DNA from: Escherichia coli
Lineage (GTDB): Bacteria > Pseudomonadota > Gammaproteobacteria > Enterobacterales > Enterobacteriaceae
Reading direction: 5' to 3' (one strand)
Length of the DNA stretch: 64,000 bases
Assembly: GCF_016026235.1 (NCBI RefSeq)
Contig: NZ_CP065613.1
Of this stretch, positions 1 to 10,384 are shown piece by piece. A program made the translations under genes and the position numbers. The notes beneath the pieces were generated by a model. The model saw only the letters and a list, made by a program, of their open reading frames with translations, was not told the DNA's origin and did no database searches. Numbering within the stretch: the stretch's first letter is position 1; each line of letters begins with the position of its first letter.

Positions 1-716
1 AAACGAAAGGTGCGGGAACGACGTTCTGGATGTACACCGGCAAGGGCGATGCGTTTGCGAACCCTTTGTCGGACACTGACTGGCTGCGTCTTGCGATGGT
101 GAAGGATCTGCAACCTGGCGAAATGACCGCTGATGCAGAAGATGACACTTATCTCGATGATGAAGATGCAGACTGGAAAACGACAACCCAGGGGCAGAAA
201 TCCGTCGGTGATACTTTGGCGACGCTGGCCTGGCGTCCGGGTGACAGCGGGCAGAAAAAACTGGTTCAGTTGTTCGATTCCGGTGAAGTCTGCGCGTTTC
301 GTATCAAATACCCCAACGGTACGGTTGATGTTTTCCGTGGCTGGCTGAGTTCACTGGGTAAAACCATTACCTCAAAAGAGGTGATGACCCGTACTGTAAA
401 AATCAGCGGTGTGGGGCGTCCGTATCTGGCAGAGGAGGGCGCTGAAACCGTGGGTGTTACCGGACTGACGGTGGCACCGGCATCTGTCAGTGTCAAAGCG
501 GGAGCAACCACCACACTGACCTTTACAGTAAAACCTGACGGGGCCAGTGACAAAGCGATCAGTGTGCATTCGTCAGATCCTCAGACTGCTTCGGTGACCC
601 TGAGCGGGCTTGTGGCCACGGTGAAAGGCGTGAAGCAGGGCAGTGTCAGCATCGTGGGCATGACCTCTGACGGAGAGTTTGTGGCAGTGGCTGCGGTGAC
701 CGTCAGCGCACCATAA
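1..716 (+). CDS. V: Major tail protein V, 5'-partial (frame open to window start), with C-terminal Ig-like domain
   Basis: Translation matches lambda gpV (ANPLSD..DWLRLA..KDL.PGE...YLDDEDADW; C-terminal Big_2-like TVAPASVSVKAG...); no stop between position 3 and the listed ATG at 30. Confidence 0.9.
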   Translation, partial: TKGAGTTFWMYTGKGDAFANPLSDTDWLRLAMVKDLQPGEMTADAEDDTYLDDEDADWKTTTQGQKSVGDTLATLAWRPGDSGQKKLVQLFDSGEVCAFRIKYPNGTVDVFRGWLSSLGKTITSKEVMTRTVKISGVGRPYLAEEGAETVGVTGLTVAPASVSVKAGATTTLTFTVKPDGASDKAISVHSSDPQTASVTLSGLVATVKGVKQGSVSIVGMTSDGEFVAVAAVTVSAP

Positions 717-736
717 CAGGACGATACTCATCATTG

Positions 737-759
737 CCCCGGTTATCCGGGGCTTTTTG
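737..759 (+). terminator. GC hairpin (CCCCGG-TTAT-CCGGGG) followed by CTTTTT between V and G; possible partial terminator/attenuator
   Basis: Perfect 6-bp GC stem, 4-nt loop and T-run read directly from sequence. Confidence 0.4.
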
Positions 760-774
760 CATCCGGAGAACATG

Positions 775-1161
775 ATGTTTCTGAAACAGGATACGTTTAA
801 TTATGAAAAACAGTCCGTGGTGCTCAGTGAGCTGTCCGGGCTGCAGAGAATTGAATATCTGACGTTTGTTCAGCAGCGAACGGCAAAGTTTGATGCACAG
901 GAGGGAGAACTGCCGGAGGCTGAACGACAGATTGCTTTTCTGCGTATGGGAATGGATATCAATGCCTGGCTGGTTTCCCGCTCACTGTGGAATGCTGAGC
1001 AGTCTCAGGATGTTGAGACGCTTTGCGCATCCATTATGACAACATGGTCGTATGATGCGCTGGGCGCGGGGGCGGAGAGGGTTCTGTCGCTGAGCGGTAT
1101 GGGGACCATTGAGAATGCCGGGGATGATGATCATGAGGCGCTGACGCCGGAAAAGTCCTGA
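775..1161 (+). CDS. G: Tail assembly chaperone G
   Basis: MFLKQDTF..VVLSELSGLQRIEYL resembles lambda gpG; GGAG 6 nt upstream of ATG 775 (ATG 772 also possible). Confidence 0.85.
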   Translation: MFLKQDTFNYEKQSVVLSELSGLQRIEYLTFVQQRTAKFDAQEGELPEAERQIAFLRMGMDINAWLVSRSLWNAEQSQDVETLCASIMTTWSYDALGAGAERVLSLSGMGTIENAGDDDHEALTPEKS

Positions 1162-1499
1162 CGCGGGAAATGCAGTTTGTCATGCGGCTTGCCCGGGAGT
1201 TCCGGCGGGCAGACTGGCGGCGGATGCTGTCGGAAATGTCGGCCACTGAGCTTGGTGAGTGGGGCGATTATTTCCGGATGCAGAGCTTCAGTGATGTGTG
1301 GATGGATGCGCAGTTTGCCTCGCTGAAGGCATTGATCGTGAGAATGGTGTCCGGCAGCAGCGATGCTGCGGTGGCTGATTTCAGCCTTTTACCGGAAGAG
1401 AACGGGATACCGGAGCGAACGGACGAAGAACTGATGCATCTTGGGGAAGGTATTTCCGGAGGTGTGCGTTATGGACCAGATAGCCAACCTGGTCATTGA
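1137..1499 (+). CDS. T: T segment of tail assembly chaperone G-T; no own start, expected to be expressed by -1 ribosomal frameshift from G
   Basis: ORF in the -1 frame relative to G, open from 1137, overlapping the last 25 nt of G; same arrangement as lambda G/G-T; only A-run in the overlap is GGAAAAG at 1149-1155. Confidence 0.7.
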   Translation, partial: GADAGKVLTREMQFVMRLAREFRRADWRRMLSEMSATELGEWGDYFRMQSFSDVWMDAQFASLKALIVRMVSGSSDAAVADFSLLPEENGIPERTDEELMHLGEGISGGVRYGPDSQPGH

Positions 1500-4400
1500 T
1501 TTGGGGATTGATGCGGCAGAGTTTAAAAATGAAATTCCCCGTATCAAAAACCTTCTGAATGGTGCAGCCAGCGATGCAGAACGGTCTTCTGCCCGTATGC
1601 AGCGTTTTATGGAGCGTCAGACTCAGGCGGCCCGGCAGACAATGCAGGCGGCTTCTTCGGCTGCAACAGCAGCATCAGCCCATGCGCAGACGGTGGAAAA
1701 GAACGCACGGGCTCATGAACGCATGGCCCGTGAGGTGGAACAAACCCGTCTGCGCGTGGATGCCCTGAATCAGAAAATGCGCGAGGAACAGGCGCAGGCC
1801 AGGGCACTGGCGGAGGCGCAGGATAAAGCGGCTGCCGCCTTTTATCGCCAGATTGACAGTGTGAAACAGGCCGGTGCGGGGCTTCAGGAATTACAGCGTA
1901 TTCAGCAGCAGATCCGACAGGCCAGAAACAGTGGCGGGGTTGGTCAGCAGGATTATCTGGCGCTGATTTCGGAGATCACGGCGAAAACCCGTGCCCTGAC
2001 GCAGGCAGAGGAACAGGCCACCCGGCAGAAAGCGGCGTTTATCCGCCAGCTTAAAGAGCAGGCAACCCGCCAGAATCTGTCGTCTTCTGAGTTGCTTCGC
2101 GCCAGGGCGGCTCAGCTGGGGGTAAGCAGTGCTGCAGAAGTGTATATCCGCAAAATGGAGCGGGCAGGAAAAGCCACACATTCGCTGGGGCTGAAAAGTG
2201 CGGCAGCCCGGCGGGAGCTGGGGGTGTTAATCAGTCAGATGGCGCGCGGCAATTTTGGTGCGCTGAGGGGATCCGGGATAACGCTGGCTAACCGTGCCGG
2301 ATGGACAGGCGCACTGATGTCGCCGAAAGGCATGATGACTGGCGGCGTTATTGGCGGACTTGTCGCGGCGGTCCTGGGTCTGGGTAAAGCCTGGCATGAC
2401 GGCCGGAAGGAGGGCGAGGAATTTAACCGTCAGCTGGCGCTGACGGGACATTATGCCGGTGTCACTGTCGGGCAGTTGTGGAAACTCAGCCGGGCCATAT
2501 CCGGGAATGGTATCACGCAACATGCGGCAGCCGGTGCGCTGGCACAGGTGGTGGGCAGTGGGGCATTTCATGGAAACGATATTGGTATGGTGGCGAAAGC
2601 TGCCGCACAGATGGAGCGATCGGTTGGCCAGTCGGTCAGCGATACCATAAATCAGTTTAAGCGGCTGAAGGATGATCCTGTAAATGCCGCGAAGGCGCTG
2701 GACAATGCGTTGCATTTTTTGACTGCCACTCAGCTTGAGCAGATACGCGTCCTTGGGGAGCTGGGGCGGTCCAGTGATGCGGCCCGGATCGCCATGTCTG
2801 CGCTGGCAGAGGAAACCGGTAAACGCACATCTGATATTGATAATAATCTCAATGCGCTGGGTAGTACGCTGCAAACCTTGTCTGACTGGTGGAAGCAGTT
2901 CTGGGATGCGGCCATGAATATTGGTCGTGAAGACTCGCTGGATGCGCAGATTGATGCGTTACAGGAAAAAATTCAGCGCGCGAAAAAATATCCGTGGACA
3001 AACGCCTCCACACAGGTGGAGTACGATCAGCAGCGTCTTAACGATCTTCAGGAGAAAAAACGCCGGAAGGATTTGCAGGATGCAAAAGCGCAGGCAGAAC
3101 GGAATTACCAGGAGCAACAGAAACGCCGGAATGCTGAAAATGCCGCGCTGAACCGGATGAATGAAACGGAAGCTGCACGACATCAGCGGGAAATTGCGCG
3201 TATTAATGCCATGCAGTACGCCGACCAGGCTGTCAGGGATGCGGCGATACAGCGTGAAAATGAACGTTACGAAAAAGCCATTAAGAAAAATACACGGGCA
3301 ACCCGTAATGATGAGGCCACCCGGTTATTGCTGCAGTACAGTCAGCAGCAGGCACAGGTGGAAGGGCAGATTGCTGCTGCCAGACAGTCAGCAGGCATTG
3401 CCACTGAAAGGATGACTGAAGCGCATAAACAGCTTCTGGCCCTGCAGCAGCGCATCAGCGACCTGGACGGGAAAAAGCTGACGGCAGATGAAAAGAGTGT
3501 GCTGGCCCGTAAGAATGAGCTGATTCAGGCGCTGACGCTGCTGGATGTGAAACAGCAGGAGCTGCAGAAACAGACAGCGCTTAACGACCTGAGAAAAAAA
3601 ACGGTTCAGCTGACCAGCCAGCTGGCAGACAAAGAACGTGCACTGCGTGAGCAGCACAATCTGGATATTGCCACTGCAGGTATGGGGGATAAGCAGCGGC
3701 AGCGCTACCAGGCACAGTTGCGCATCCGGCAGGAATACCGGCAACAGTTGCAACAGCTTGAGAATGACAGTCGCCAGAAAGGCACTTACGGGACGGAGGA
3801 CTACCGGAGGGCTGAGGAGGTGCTGAAGGGGAGCCTGAAGCGACAACTGAATGAAAACAAACGCTACTGGCAGGAACTGGAAGTGGCGCAGGGCGACTGG
3901 AAAAACGGTGCCATGCGGGCGTTTCAGAATTTTACGGCGGATGCGGATAATGCGGCGGGAACGGCAGAACAGATGTTTACAGTGGCATTCAGCAGTGCCG
4001 GTAATGCACTGGCGACATTCTGTACCACCGGTAAGCTGAATTTTAAATCCTTCACCTCTTCCCTGTTGTCAGATATGGCCAGAATTATGGCACAGATGGC
4101 CATGATGCAGGCGGTAAAGGGCGTCGGTTCTTTATTCGGCTTCACGACTAATGCTGATGGCGGTGTTTACCAGTCTGCTGATTTGAGTCGCTACAGTGGC
4201 ATGGTGGTTAACCGTCCGACGTTTTTTGCTTTTGCAAAAGGCGCGGGTGTGATGGGGGAAGCGGGACCTGAAGCCATTCTGCCACTGCGTCGCGGTGCTG
4301 ATGGTAAGCTGGGGGTTGTGGCGGATACTGGTGGTTCAGGCATGGTGATGTTTGCCCCGCAGTACAACATTGAGATCAATAACGACGGCACGAACGGGCA

Positions 4401-4512
4401 GATAGGTCCGGCTGCCCTGAAGGTGGTTTATGACCTCGGGAAAAAAGCGGCCGCGGACTTTATGCAACAGCAGGCCCGTGATGGTGGCCGGTTAAGTGGA
4501 GCATACCGGTAA
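1471..4512 (+). CDS. H: Tail tape measure protein H
   Basis: N-terminus (MDQIANLVIDLGIDAAEF) and C-terminus (INNDGTNGQIGPAALK.VYD...RDGG) lambda gpH-like; long Q/A/R-rich coiled-coil centre; start assigned to ATG 1471, which overlaps the end of T. Confidence 0.9.
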   Translation: MDQIANLVIDLGIDAAEFKNEIPRIKNLLNGAASDAERSSARMQRFMERQTQAARQTMQAASSAATAASAHAQTVEKNARAHERMAREVEQTRLRVDALNQKMREEQAQARALAEAQDKAAAAFYRQIDSVKQAGAGLQELQRIQQQIRQARNSGGVGQQDYLALISEITAKTRALTQAEEQATRQKAAFIRQLKEQATRQNLSSSELLRARAAQLGVSSAAEVYIRKMERAGKATHSLGLKSAAARRELGVLISQMARGNFGALRGSGITLANRAGWTGALMSPKGMMTGGVIGGLVAAVLGLGKAWHDGRKEGEEFNRQLALTGHYAGVTVGQLWKLSRAISGNGITQHAAAGALAQVVGSGAFHGNDIGMVAKAAAQMERSVGQSVSDTINQFKRLKDDPVNAAKALDNALHFLTATQLEQIRVLGELGRSSDAARIAMSALAEETGKRTSDIDNNLNALGSTLQTLSDWWKQFWDAAMNIGREDSLDAQIDALQEKIQRAKKYPWTNASTQVEYDQQRLNDLQEKKRRKDLQDAKAQAERNYQEQQKRRNAENAALNRMNETEAARHQREIARINAMQYADQAVRDAAIQRENERYEKAIKKNTRATRNDEATRLLLQYSQQQAQVEGQIAAARQSAGIATERMTEAHKQLLALQQRISDLDGKKLTADEKSVLARKNELIQALTLLDVKQQELQKQTALNDLRKKTVQLTSQLADKERALREQHNLDIATAGMGDKQRQRYQAQLRIRQEYRQQLQQLENDSRQKGTYGTEDYRRAEEVLKGSLKRQLNENKRYWQELEVAQGDWKNGAMRAFQNFTADADNAAGTAEQMFTVAFSSAGNALATFCTTGKLNFKSFTSSLLSDMARIMAQMAMMQAVKGVGSLFGFTTNADGGVYQSADLSRYSGMVVNRPTFFAFAKGAGVMGEAGPEAILPLRRGADGKLGVVADTGGSGMVMFAPQYNIEINNDGTNGQIGPAALKVVYDLGKKAAADFMQQQARDGGRLSGAYR

Positions 4513-4841
4513 TGGAGACGTTTCACTGGAAAGTGCGCCCGGATATGAATGTGGTATCAGAGCCGAAAGTGGTGACAGTGAAGCTGGGCGATGGTTATGA
4601 ACAGCGTCGTGCGGCGGGACTGAATAACCAGTTGTCGACTTACAGCGTGACGATACGTGTTCGTAAAGGTGAACACCCATCTTTAAAAGCCTTTCTGGAA
4701 CGGCACGGTGGCGTCCGCGCATTTCAGTGGACGCCACCTTATGACTGGAAACTGATCAGGGTGGTTTGTCGTAAATGGTCGGCAAGCGTGGGGGCGTTAT
4801 GGGTGACTGTAACGGCCGATTTTGAACAGGTGGTGAACTGA
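4512..4841 (+). CDS. M: Minor tail protein M
   Basis: 109-aa ORF resembling lambda gpM; TAATG overlap with H stop. Confidence 0.9.
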   Translation: METFHWKVRPDMNVVSEPKVVTVKLGDGYEQRRAAGLNNQLSTYSVTIRVRKGEHPSLKAFLERHGGVRAFQWTPPYDWKLIRVVCRKWSASVGALWVTVTADFEQVVN

Positions 4842-5539
4842 TGCAGGATATCCGGCAGGAAACACTGAATGAATGCACCCGTGCGGAGCAGTCAGCCCGG
4901 GTGGAGCTCTGGGAAATCGATCTGACAGAGGTCGGTGGTGAGCGTTATTTTTTCTGTAATGAGCAGAACGAAAAAGGTGAGCCGGTCACCTGGCAGGGGC
5001 GGCAGTATCAGGCATACCCCATTCAGGGGTCGGGGTTTGAACTGAACGGCAGGGGCTGTGCTGCCCGTCCGACACTGACGGTCTCTAACCTGCACGGCAT
5101 GGTCACCGGTATGGCGGAAGATCTGCAGAGTCTGGTCGGCGGAACGGTGGTCCGGCGTAAGGTTTACGCCCGTTTTCTGGATGCGGTGAACTTCGTCAAC
5201 GGAAACAGCGACGCCGATCCGGAACAGGAGGTGATCAGCCGCTGGCGCATCGAGCAGTGCAGCGAACTGAGCGCGGTCAGTGCCTCTTTTGTGCTGGCCA
5301 CACCAACGGAGACGGATGGCGCGGTTTTCCCGGGGCGTATCATGCTGGCGAATACCTGTATGTGGACTTACCGTTCTGATGAGTGTGGTTACACGGGCAG
5401 GGCAGTGGCTGACGAGTTCGACAAACCAACGACGGATATCCGGAAGGACAAATGCAGCAAGTGTATGCGCGGGTGTGAGTTGCGCAACAATACCGGTAAT
5501 TTCGGCGGTTTCCTTTCCATCAATAAACTTTCTCAGTAA
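4841..5539 (+). CDS. L: Minor tail protein L
   Basis: 232-aa ORF resembling lambda gpL, Cys cluster near C-terminus; TGATG overlap with M. Confidence 0.9.
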   Translation: MQDIRQETLNECTRAEQSARVELWEIDLTEVGGERYFFCNEQNEKGEPVTWQGRQYQAYPIQGSGFELNGRGCAARPTLTVSNLHGMVTGMAEDLQSLVGGTVVRRKVYARFLDAVNFVNGNSDADPEQEVISRWRIEQCSELSAVSASFVLATPTETDGAVFPGRIMLANTCMWTYRSDECGYTGRAVADEFDKPTTDIRKDKCSKCMRGCELRNNTGNFGGFLSINKLSQ

Positions 5540-5543
5540 ATCC

Positions 5544-6287
5544 ATGACACAGACAGAATCAGCGATTCTGGCGCACGCCCGGCGATGTGCGCCAGCGGAG
5601 TTGTGCGGCTTCGTGGTGAGAACGCCGGAGGGGGAAAGATATTTTCCCTGCGTGAATATCTCCGGTGAGCCGGAGGCGTATTTCCGGATGTCGCCGGAGG
5701 ACTGGCTGCGGGCAGAGATGCAGGGTGAGATTGTGGCGCTGGTCCACAGCCACCCCGGTGGTCTGCCCTGGCTGAGTGAGGCTGACAGGCGGCTGCAGGT
5801 GCAGAGCGATTTGCCGTGGTGGCTGGTCTGCCGGGGTGAGATTCATAAATTCCGCTGTGTGCCGCATCTTACCGGGCGGCGCTTTGAGCACGGGGTGACG
5901 GACTGTTACACGCTGTTCCGGGATGCTTATCATCTGGCGGGGATTGAGATGCCGGATTTTCATCGCGGGGATGACTGGTGGCGTCACGGTCAGAATCTCT
6001 ATCTTGACAATATGGAGGTGACGGGTTTTTACCGTGTCGCACTGACAGAGGCACAGCCGGGCGATGTGCTGCTGTGCTGTTTTGGTTCATCGGTGCCGAA
6101 TCATGCCGCCATTTACTGCGGTGACGGCGGGCTGCTGCACCATATTCCTGAACAACTGAGCAAACGAGAGAGGTACACCGACAAATGGCAGCGACGCACA
6201 CACTCCCTCTGGCGTCACCGGGCATGGCGCGCATCTGCCTTTACGGGGATTTACAACGATTTGGTCGCCGCATCGACCTTCGTGTGA
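5544..6287 (+). CDS. K: Tail tip assembly protein K (JAB/MPN + NlpC/P60-like)
   Basis: MTQTESAILAHARRCAP...HSHPGG motif; start set at ATG 5544 directly after L stop, not at the upstream ORF-track start 5280. Confidence 0.85.
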   Translation: MTQTESAILAHARRCAPAELCGFVVRTPEGERYFPCVNISGEPEAYFRMSPEDWLRAEMQGEIVALVHSHPGGLPWLSEADRRLQVQSDLPWWLVCRGEIHKFRCVPHLTGRRFEHGVTDCYTLFRDAYHLAGIEMPDFHRGDDWWRHGQNLYLDNMEVTGFYRVALTEAQPGDVLLCCFGSSVPNHAAIYCGDGGLLHHIPEQLSKRERYTDKWQRRTHSLWRHRAWRASAFTGIYNDLVAASTFV

Positions 6288-9800: not shown

Positions 9801-10384
9801 CTCCGGCATTTTCCCTGACACCTGGCGGACGGCTGACGGCGAAAAATGCCGATATCAGCGGTAACGTGAACGCGAACTCCGGGACGCTCAACAACGTCAC
9901 GATTAACCAGAACTGTACGATTAAGGGCATGCTGGAGGCGACCCAGGTCAGAGGGGATTTCGTTAAAGCTGTATCAAAAGCCTTCCCGAAAAAAGTCGGT
10001 ACGTGGGGTAACACGGAAACACCAAACGGTACGGTTACAGTCACCATCAGCGATGATCATAACTTTGACCGCCAGATTATTATTCCGCCCATTATTTTTA
10101 ACGGTATAGCGTATGACGATCCGGGGAGCGGAAATAACCTAGGAGGCACGCGATACACGGGTTATGGTTTTGAAGTTCGCAAAAACGGCGTATTAATCGC
10201 ATCCAGAGAAACTAAAGGGGCCATTCCCGGTAGTTACAGTGCAGTTATTGATATGCCTAGTGGTGGTGGTAGCGTCACTCTGGAGTTTAAGATTTTCCAG
10301 AAAGGCAATCAGGGGGCAGGCAATATCACCGACTGTACGGTGATTGTGACCAAAAAAGCGGCTTCCGGCATCAGTATTCGTTGA
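6887..10384 (+). CDS. J: Host specificity (central tail fibre / tip attachment) protein J
   Basis: 1165-aa ORF, lambda gpJ-like N-terminal two thirds with FN3-like repeats, divergent C-terminus; GAGGA before ATG. Confidence 0.9.

Follow-up and report, generated by a model that had tools for sequence, protein, structure and literature searches.

Among the closest known relatives of the locus considered here is the gene pair G/T of phage lambda, where a programmed -1 frameshift gives rise to G and a G-T fusion (Levin, Hendrix, Casjens 1993; Xu, Hendrix, Duda 2004, 2013, 2014; cited in PMC5009743) at a G to GT ratio of about 30:1 (PMC5009743). For two further phages the slippery site is labelled in the sequence records. 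Positions 10027-10033 of N15 (GenBank AF064539) are annotated as 'slippery sequence for -1 translational frameshift', and positions 10194-10200 of phi80 (GenBank FN582354) carry the same label together with a joined gpG-T CDS. Both sites are GGAAAAG and both read GCG GAA AAG CCC. The records of Gifsy-1 and Gifsy-2 likewise present T as part of a frameshift product. In the open-access full-text literature, we found no paper on the GGAAAAG heptamer in phage tail genes. The heptamer does appear in work on a reconstituted E. coli system by Peng et al., where AUG GAA AAG gave mainly the 0-frame product, and where G GAA AAG served as the control in which 'only one tRNA can slip' and was much less slippery in vitro than G GGA AAG (PMC6924986).

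The window, i.e. the whole analysed stretch of 64,000 nt of Escherichia coli DNA, starts with the tail module of a lambdoid prophage (positions 1-5600; the features from V to H lie on the plus strand). The first gene is the 3' part of V, encoding the major tail tube protein (30-716; Pfam Phage_TTP_12, E 3.9e-65, and Big_2) and annotated as phage tail tube protein in an identical E. coli record. It is followed by gene G, a tail assembly chaperone of 128 aa in the 0 frame (775-1161; PF06894 Phage_TAC_2, E 2.7e-40), for which the identical record holds a PGAP gpG CDS with the same coordinates. The T segment used after the predicted shift lies in the -1 frame (1155-1499; PF06223 Phage_tail_T, E 5.1e-15). 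Tape measure gene H (1471-4512; Pfam TMP_2, TMP_4 and Tape_meas_lam_C, PGAP annotation) starts within the end of T (1471 versus 1499), and homologues of M, L and K come downstream of H. The overlapping G/T pair is therefore placed between V and H, as in G/GT systems of the lambda type. Between V and G, an element resembling an intrinsic terminator occupies 736-763 and consists of GCCCCGGTTATCCGGGGC and then TTTTTGCATC. The strong hairpin proper spans 736-753, with TTTTTGC directly after GCCCCGGTTATCCGGGGC. Both mEp460 and Ayreon have an annotated terminator at this position, and N15 has a putative terminator stem-loop there. This hairpin may leave G, T and H less transcribed than V.

The prophage that hosts the site is a cdtI/mEp460-type lambdoid prophage of E. 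coli. Region 720-1520 shows 100% identity with prophages of E. coli CFSAN029787 and other strains and 96-97% identity with phages cdtI, mEp460, Ayreon, Tritos and others, and it is present in 1846 of 5426 complete E. coli genomes. The CFSAN029787 prophage has some further features. A tRNA cluster (Ile, Arg, Thr, Gly) is located downstream of its Q antiterminator gene (L100 5505-5815), outside the window. A frameshifted pseudogene of an ipaH-type T3SS effector adjoins the tail fibre genes (L100 32544-34186, corresponding to about 13260-14910 of the window), and the chromosomal btsSR and yeh genes come after the prophage.

Positions 1149-1155 very probably represent the programmed -1 ribosomal frameshift site of the G/GT tail assembly chaperone pair. 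By direct reading and translation, the 3' end of G is GCG CTG ACG CCG GAA AAG TCC TGA, and the -1 frame reads TGA (1134-1136) GGC GCT GAC GCC GGA AAA GTC CTG ACG CGG GAA ATG and is open over 1137-1499. Since the -1 frame opens only after the TGA at 1134-1136, which is the upstream limit of the shift window, and G ends at its stop TGA (1159-1161, one codon past the heptamer), the overlap is exactly 1137-1161. The shift must fall within these 25 nt. These limits coincide with those of the original prediction, which had the T frame open from 1137 and had named G GAA AAG (1149-1155) as the only slippery candidate of the overlap. No other in-phase heptamer there can re-pair: G GCG CTG, G CTG ACG, G ACG CCG and G CCG GAA all fail. 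The heptamer is in the phase of G and encodes Glu-Lys in the 0 frame, with GGA AAA in the -1 frame. Its first three positions (G G A) break the canonical X XXY YYZ rule, but positions 4-6 (AAA) and position 7 (G) do fit it, and the tetramer A AAG in 0-frame phase at 1152-1155 is a Z_ZZN (A_AAG) site. GGAAAAG occurs in the window 11 times against 8.9 expected and is not rare, so its frequency alone is no evidence; what argues for the site is its in-phase conservation at the homologous codon in the sequences compared.

When set beside lambda, the locus has homologous genes (34% identity over the fusion) in the same position between V and H, a T frame at -1 lacking a conserved start, a predicted slip at the corresponding Lys codon towards the 3' end of G, and no conserved downstream structure. 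It differs in the heptamer, which is G GAA AAG here and G GGA AAG in lambda; the lambda form had been quoted correctly beforehand, as lambda shows GCG GGA AAG at the homologous position. It also differs in that the G stop follows after 1 codon rather than 5, and in that the overlap measures 25 nt rather than 64. Furthermore, the residues encoded at the site depend on the frame (Glu-Lys versus Gly-Lys), which is not so in lambda. The pairs gp14/gp15 of N15 and gpG/gpG-T of phi80 have the identical GGAAAAG at the corresponding codon and with the same phasing. They are unlike the window in the preceding codon (GCG, Ala, in place of CCG, Pro), in a 0-frame tail of 5 codons past the site (CCC TYG CCA GYG AGC TGA) and in a protein identity to the window of only about 36%.

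For comparison, 160 loci from IMG/VR and 18 annotated G/T junctions of phages or prophages were collected in addition to the window. Of the 92 loci in the first set, 90 have T in frame -1 relative to G, and the two exceptions carry an extra indel. In IMG/VR contig L025 (about 1575-1700), a 1-nt deletion inside T, past ...SATELGE, breaks the -1 rule. In the lambda-like contig L071 / L101, an indel upstream of G GGA AAG shifts the end of G out of phase. Both cases probably reflect prophage decay or faulty assembly. At the homologous Lys codon, the 90 analysable loci, a sample skewed towards relatives of the window, carry G GAA AAG (71), G GCA AAA (15), G GAA AAA (3) and G GGA AAG (1, lambda). 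Among close lambda relatives (at least 74% identity), G GGA AAG was present in 77 of 77 analysable loci. VT1-Sakai and Stx1 phages have A AAA AAG, and a Vibrio phage has C CCA AAA. Judging from these sequences, the type of heptamer follows clades. The clade of the window (cdtI, mEp460, Gifsy, Fels) is fixed for G GAA AAG, as are the clade of N15, phi80, mEp213, mEp237 and Eeyore (about 36% protein identity to the window) and several uncultivated clades. Within the clade of the window, cdtI, mEp460 and Ayreon on the one hand and the Salmonella prophages Gifsy-1, Gifsy-2 and Fels-1 (68-71% DNA identity) on the other share an identical CCGGAAAAG(T/C)CCTGA junction. The heptamer is invariant in all six despite variable flanks, the G tails upstream of the site differing by indels. 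The description of the heptamer as non-canonical thus stands against lambda and against the X XXY YYZ rule, but not otherwise, G GAA AAG being the commonest form among the sampled loci. As it is commonest in the sample and fixed in several deep clades, the novelty implied by that description is absent.

In 26 lineage representatives, the frame switch is located at the homologous heptamer. The Lys AAR codon is invariant (26/26), position 1 of the heptamer equals position 2 (26/26), the codon before the heptamer, which encodes Pro, Leu or Ala, ends in G (24/26), and the third positions neighbouring that codon vary freely. Wherever Glu is encoded at the site, the codon is GAA (18/18). Given the codon usage of the tail genes of this very phage (GAA 50% of Glu, AAG 29% of Lys and CCG 48% of Pro), the nucleotides at the site are held beyond the amino acids: the synonymous-codon probability of CCG-GAA-AAG is about 0.07 per lineage, and the triplet is fixed in all compared lineage representatives of the clade of the window. 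Protein conservation in the -1 frame begins at the heptamer (K in 26/26, E five codons later in 25/26), positions upstream of it include stops in that frame, and the alignment from the heptamer onward is gapless over 21 lineages. The 0 frame decays past the heptamer and ends 0-5 codons after the Lys codon in the 26 representatives; in most lineages of the subfamily of the window, the G stop comes 0-1 codon past it. Comparison with related lambdoid G/T junctions hence puts the frame switch at G GAA AAG across relatives, and this comparative evidence supports the proposed origin of the G-T fusion by a -1 shift in the 25-nt overlap. As an aside, in the uncultivated relative L088 (1365-1617) the open -1 frame reaches back 253 nt from the stop of G, compared with 25-85 nt elsewhere. 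L088 keeps GCG GAA AAG CGC TAA, and its long overlap looks incidental.

The T frame had been said to have no start codon of its own. This holds within the overlap, but ATG codons occur downstream at 1170-1172 and at 1182, and RefSeq/PGAP starts a separate T CDS at the first of them (WP_001161009.1, 1170-1499; L001 1951-2280). Hence a free T of 109 aa, translated from ATG 1170 by re-initiation after the G stop, or by initiation independent of G, and requiring no frameshift in this clade, has to be weighed. This ATG is located 8 nt past the TGA at 1159-1161, not only PGAP but also several phage records give T a separate CDS, and 1197 E. coli records agree to at least 99% over the 60-nt stretch in which the ATG lies. 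We nevertheless consider such a free T very unlikely. Outside the E. coli clade, ATG 1170 is not conserved: CTG, CTT or ATT stands in its place in Gifsy-1, Gifsy-2, Fels-1, N15, phi80, lambda and most other lineages, and no initiation codon for T is conserved across lineages, as in lambda. The sole SD-like element, GGGA at 1165-1168, is only 1 nt away from the ATG. Moreover, a start at 1170 would leave unexplained why the heptamer is conserved at the nucleotide level and why VLTRE, which the -1 frame encodes in the five codons from the heptamer to 1170, is kept as protein with synonymous third-base changes. From the work of Xu, Hendrix and Duda in 2013 and 2014, lambda T reportedly acts only when tethered to G.

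It is also conceivable that the heptamer is defective and that GT is not properly made, either because a decaying prophage has changed G to A in a G GGA AAG of the lambda type or because the sequence contains an error. The site is indeed one base off the lambda heptamer, and its low slipperiness in vitro, mentioned above, would agree with a defect. However, the identical heptamer is found in isolates that form plaques (cdtI, mEp460, Ayreon, Tritos, HannyBb and others), in N15, phi80 and mEp213 and, as counted above, in the large majority of analysable loci, and the prophage of the matching genome has a complete set of head and tail genes. We regard this explanation as extremely improbable. A decayed site is refuted by the conservation of the heptamer, and an error at the junction, which the original prediction had named as a possible refutation, is excluded by 1197 complete-genome E. 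coli records with at least 99% identity over the 60 nt at 1137-1196. Transcriptional slippage was rejected as well; it is implausible because the A run is only 4 nt long.

For the preferred reading, a programmed ribosomal -1 shift at 1149-1155, we infer the fusion product, its level and the choreography of the tRNAs as follows. Most ribosomes would end at the TGA at 1159 and yield the 128-aa G chaperone. A small fraction would move back by one base at G GAA AAG and read on in the T frame, producing a GT fusion of 241 aa (775-1155 plus 1155-1499) with the predicted junction ...ALTPEK followed by VLTREMQF... The predicted fusion aligns end to end with the fusions of lambda, N15, phi80, Gifsy and Fels. 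By analogy, its G part would bind the tape measure protein and its T part would recruit the tail tube protein. The driver of the slip would be the single tRNA-Lys of E. coli, weak on AAG and a perfect match for the AAA of the -1 frame. The P-site tRNA-Glu would shift along from GAA to GGA, keeping the first G:C and the third A:U pair. Since G GAA AAG replaces G GGA AAG, this P-site re-pairing would involve a G·U at the second position. Re-pairing from GAA to GGA via G·U has also been proposed for the mycobacteriophage site GGGGGAA (PMC10885494).

A possible, though less probable, variant predicts the same site and product but a slip of tRNA-Lys only, with peptidyl-tRNA-Lys in the P site moving from AAG to AAA. 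In this case, the A site (TCC) would be empty, tRNA-Glu would already have left and the next tRNA would read GTC. In favour of it, the Lys A AAR is the sole universal element of the junctions, the preceding codon being GAA, GGA, GCA, AAA or CCA, and Peng et al. class G GAA AAG as a one-tRNA site (PMC6924986). Natural A_AAG sites with a 5' codon that cannot re-pair also exist, namely A_CGA_AAG of B. subtilis cdd and G_CGA_AAG of IS1222 (PMC5009743). At these A_AAG / NNA_AAG sites, tRNA-Lys moves from AAG to AAA as would be the case here, the 5' codon is likewise no canonical XXY, and efficiency is low (PMC4066793, PMC5009743). They differ from our site in relying on flanking stimulators (upstream SD-like or downstream structure), none of which is evident here, and in the first heptamer base, which here still equals the second. 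In sister lineages, the Lys codon directly abuts the G stop, reading CTG GCA AAA TAG or CTG GAA AAA TAG. Such stop-adjacent sites (junction at about 1600-1640) occur in L059, L060, L069, L070, L072-L075, L082-L087 and L090, and also in L067, L091 and L092; by type, G GCA AAA TAG accounts for 15 and G GAA AAA TAG for 3 of the 90 loci. The re-pairing of GCA to GGC is poor, which favours the Lys-only slip at least in the G GCA AAA TAG lineages, and the presence of GCA, with its lack of -1 re-pairing, suggests a stop-adjacent single tRNA-Lys slip there. In L082-L087 and L090, we also noted an additional in-phase G GAA AAG four codons upstream.

The Lys-only slip does not, however, need position 1 of the heptamer to match position 2, a match kept in all 26 lineages. 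The G at this four-fold degenerate site is held through Pro/Ala/Leu changes, with the caveat that CCG, GCG and CTG are common codons (48%, 35% and 80% of their families). The next 0-frame codon (TCC, CCC, CGC or CCT) is not consistently rare or slow. Of all tetramers, A_AAG shifts most readily in E. coli; tetramers lacking a stimulator remain near background in vivo (0.147% versus 0.112%; PMC4066793). The fixed first G of the heptamer favours the slip of both tRNAs. Both slips, which the original prediction had offered as alternatives, fit the sequence, and the choice between them lies beyond sequence alone.

A further system for comparison is the E. coli dnaX site (A AAA AAG), which is alike in having tRNA-Lys on AAG in the A site. 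It is unlike our site in its perfect heptamer, proven SD stimulator, stem-loop and a shift of about 50-80%. In dnaX, the spacing between the SD and the heptamer is 10 nt, the same as that of an SD-like GAGG at 1135-1138 in the window. AGG, GAGG, AGGA or AAGGAGG can be found at the equivalent place in many relatives, and across lineages the affinity to the anti-SD peaks at a spacer of 6-11 nt. Nonetheless, resampling of synonymous codons reproduces this peak (observed -4.20, null -4.13, p = 0.44 for all lineages; p = 0.08 for the short-tail subfamily only). The SD-like enrichment appears to be explained by a conserved [K/Q/E]-[D/E] dipeptide rather than by a nucleotide-level signal, so a stimulatory role of the GAGG is not supported. 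Nor was a conserved hairpin comparable to that of dnaX found. The minimum free energies of 1156-1255 (z = -0.96) and 1100-1300 (z = -1.11) are unremarkable, and RNAalifold on 21 lineage representatives detected no conserved structure within 60 nt and no covariation, only an invariant helix of 4 bp about 60 nt downstream. These ordinary z-scores and the RNAalifold result lend no support to a downstream stimulatory RNA structure.

An RNA stimulator would apparently not be required at the G/GT site, and the efficiency of shifting is expected to be low. As no conserved stimulator was found, it may be well below that of lambda. A low, stimulator-independent shift would be adequate, because lambda itself needs only the ratio of G to GT given above. 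A bolder reading holds that G GAA AAG, the poorly slippery control of biochemists, has been fixed by selection in several deep lambdoid clades and works via means not described so far. We find this unlikely. Candidate means would be i) an unusual tolerance of the second-position G·U by the P-site tRNA-Glu (mnm5s2UUC), ii) stimulation by the conserved nascent peptide (T/S)-(P/A/L)-E-K or by the nearby stop codon, or iii) a deliberately lower GT:G ratio matching the longer tape measure proteins of these phages.

The feature is real and correctly located, and its original interpretation is right in outline. It is an ordinary programmed -1 frameshift site whose kind and heptamer were already known; in view of the GenBank labels on N15, phi80 and Gifsy, the finding amounts to a correct re-discovery. 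It adds little to phage biology, the G/GT frameshift being a textbook case and the heptamer being annotated in N15 and phi80. Two aspects are of practical use. The ribosomal-slippage join is missing from the T annotation of RefSeq/PGAP and of most phage records. As T is called as a free CDS with no such join, the 241-aa GT fusion is missing from predicted proteomes, a gap that concerns about 1800 E. coli genomes. In addition, since the two frames differ at the slip site, the junction peptide of GT could reveal the exact codon at which the shift takes place. In this clade, it would provide a codon resolution that is impossible from the lambda sequence, and it would probe the tolerance of a second-position G·U in the P site.
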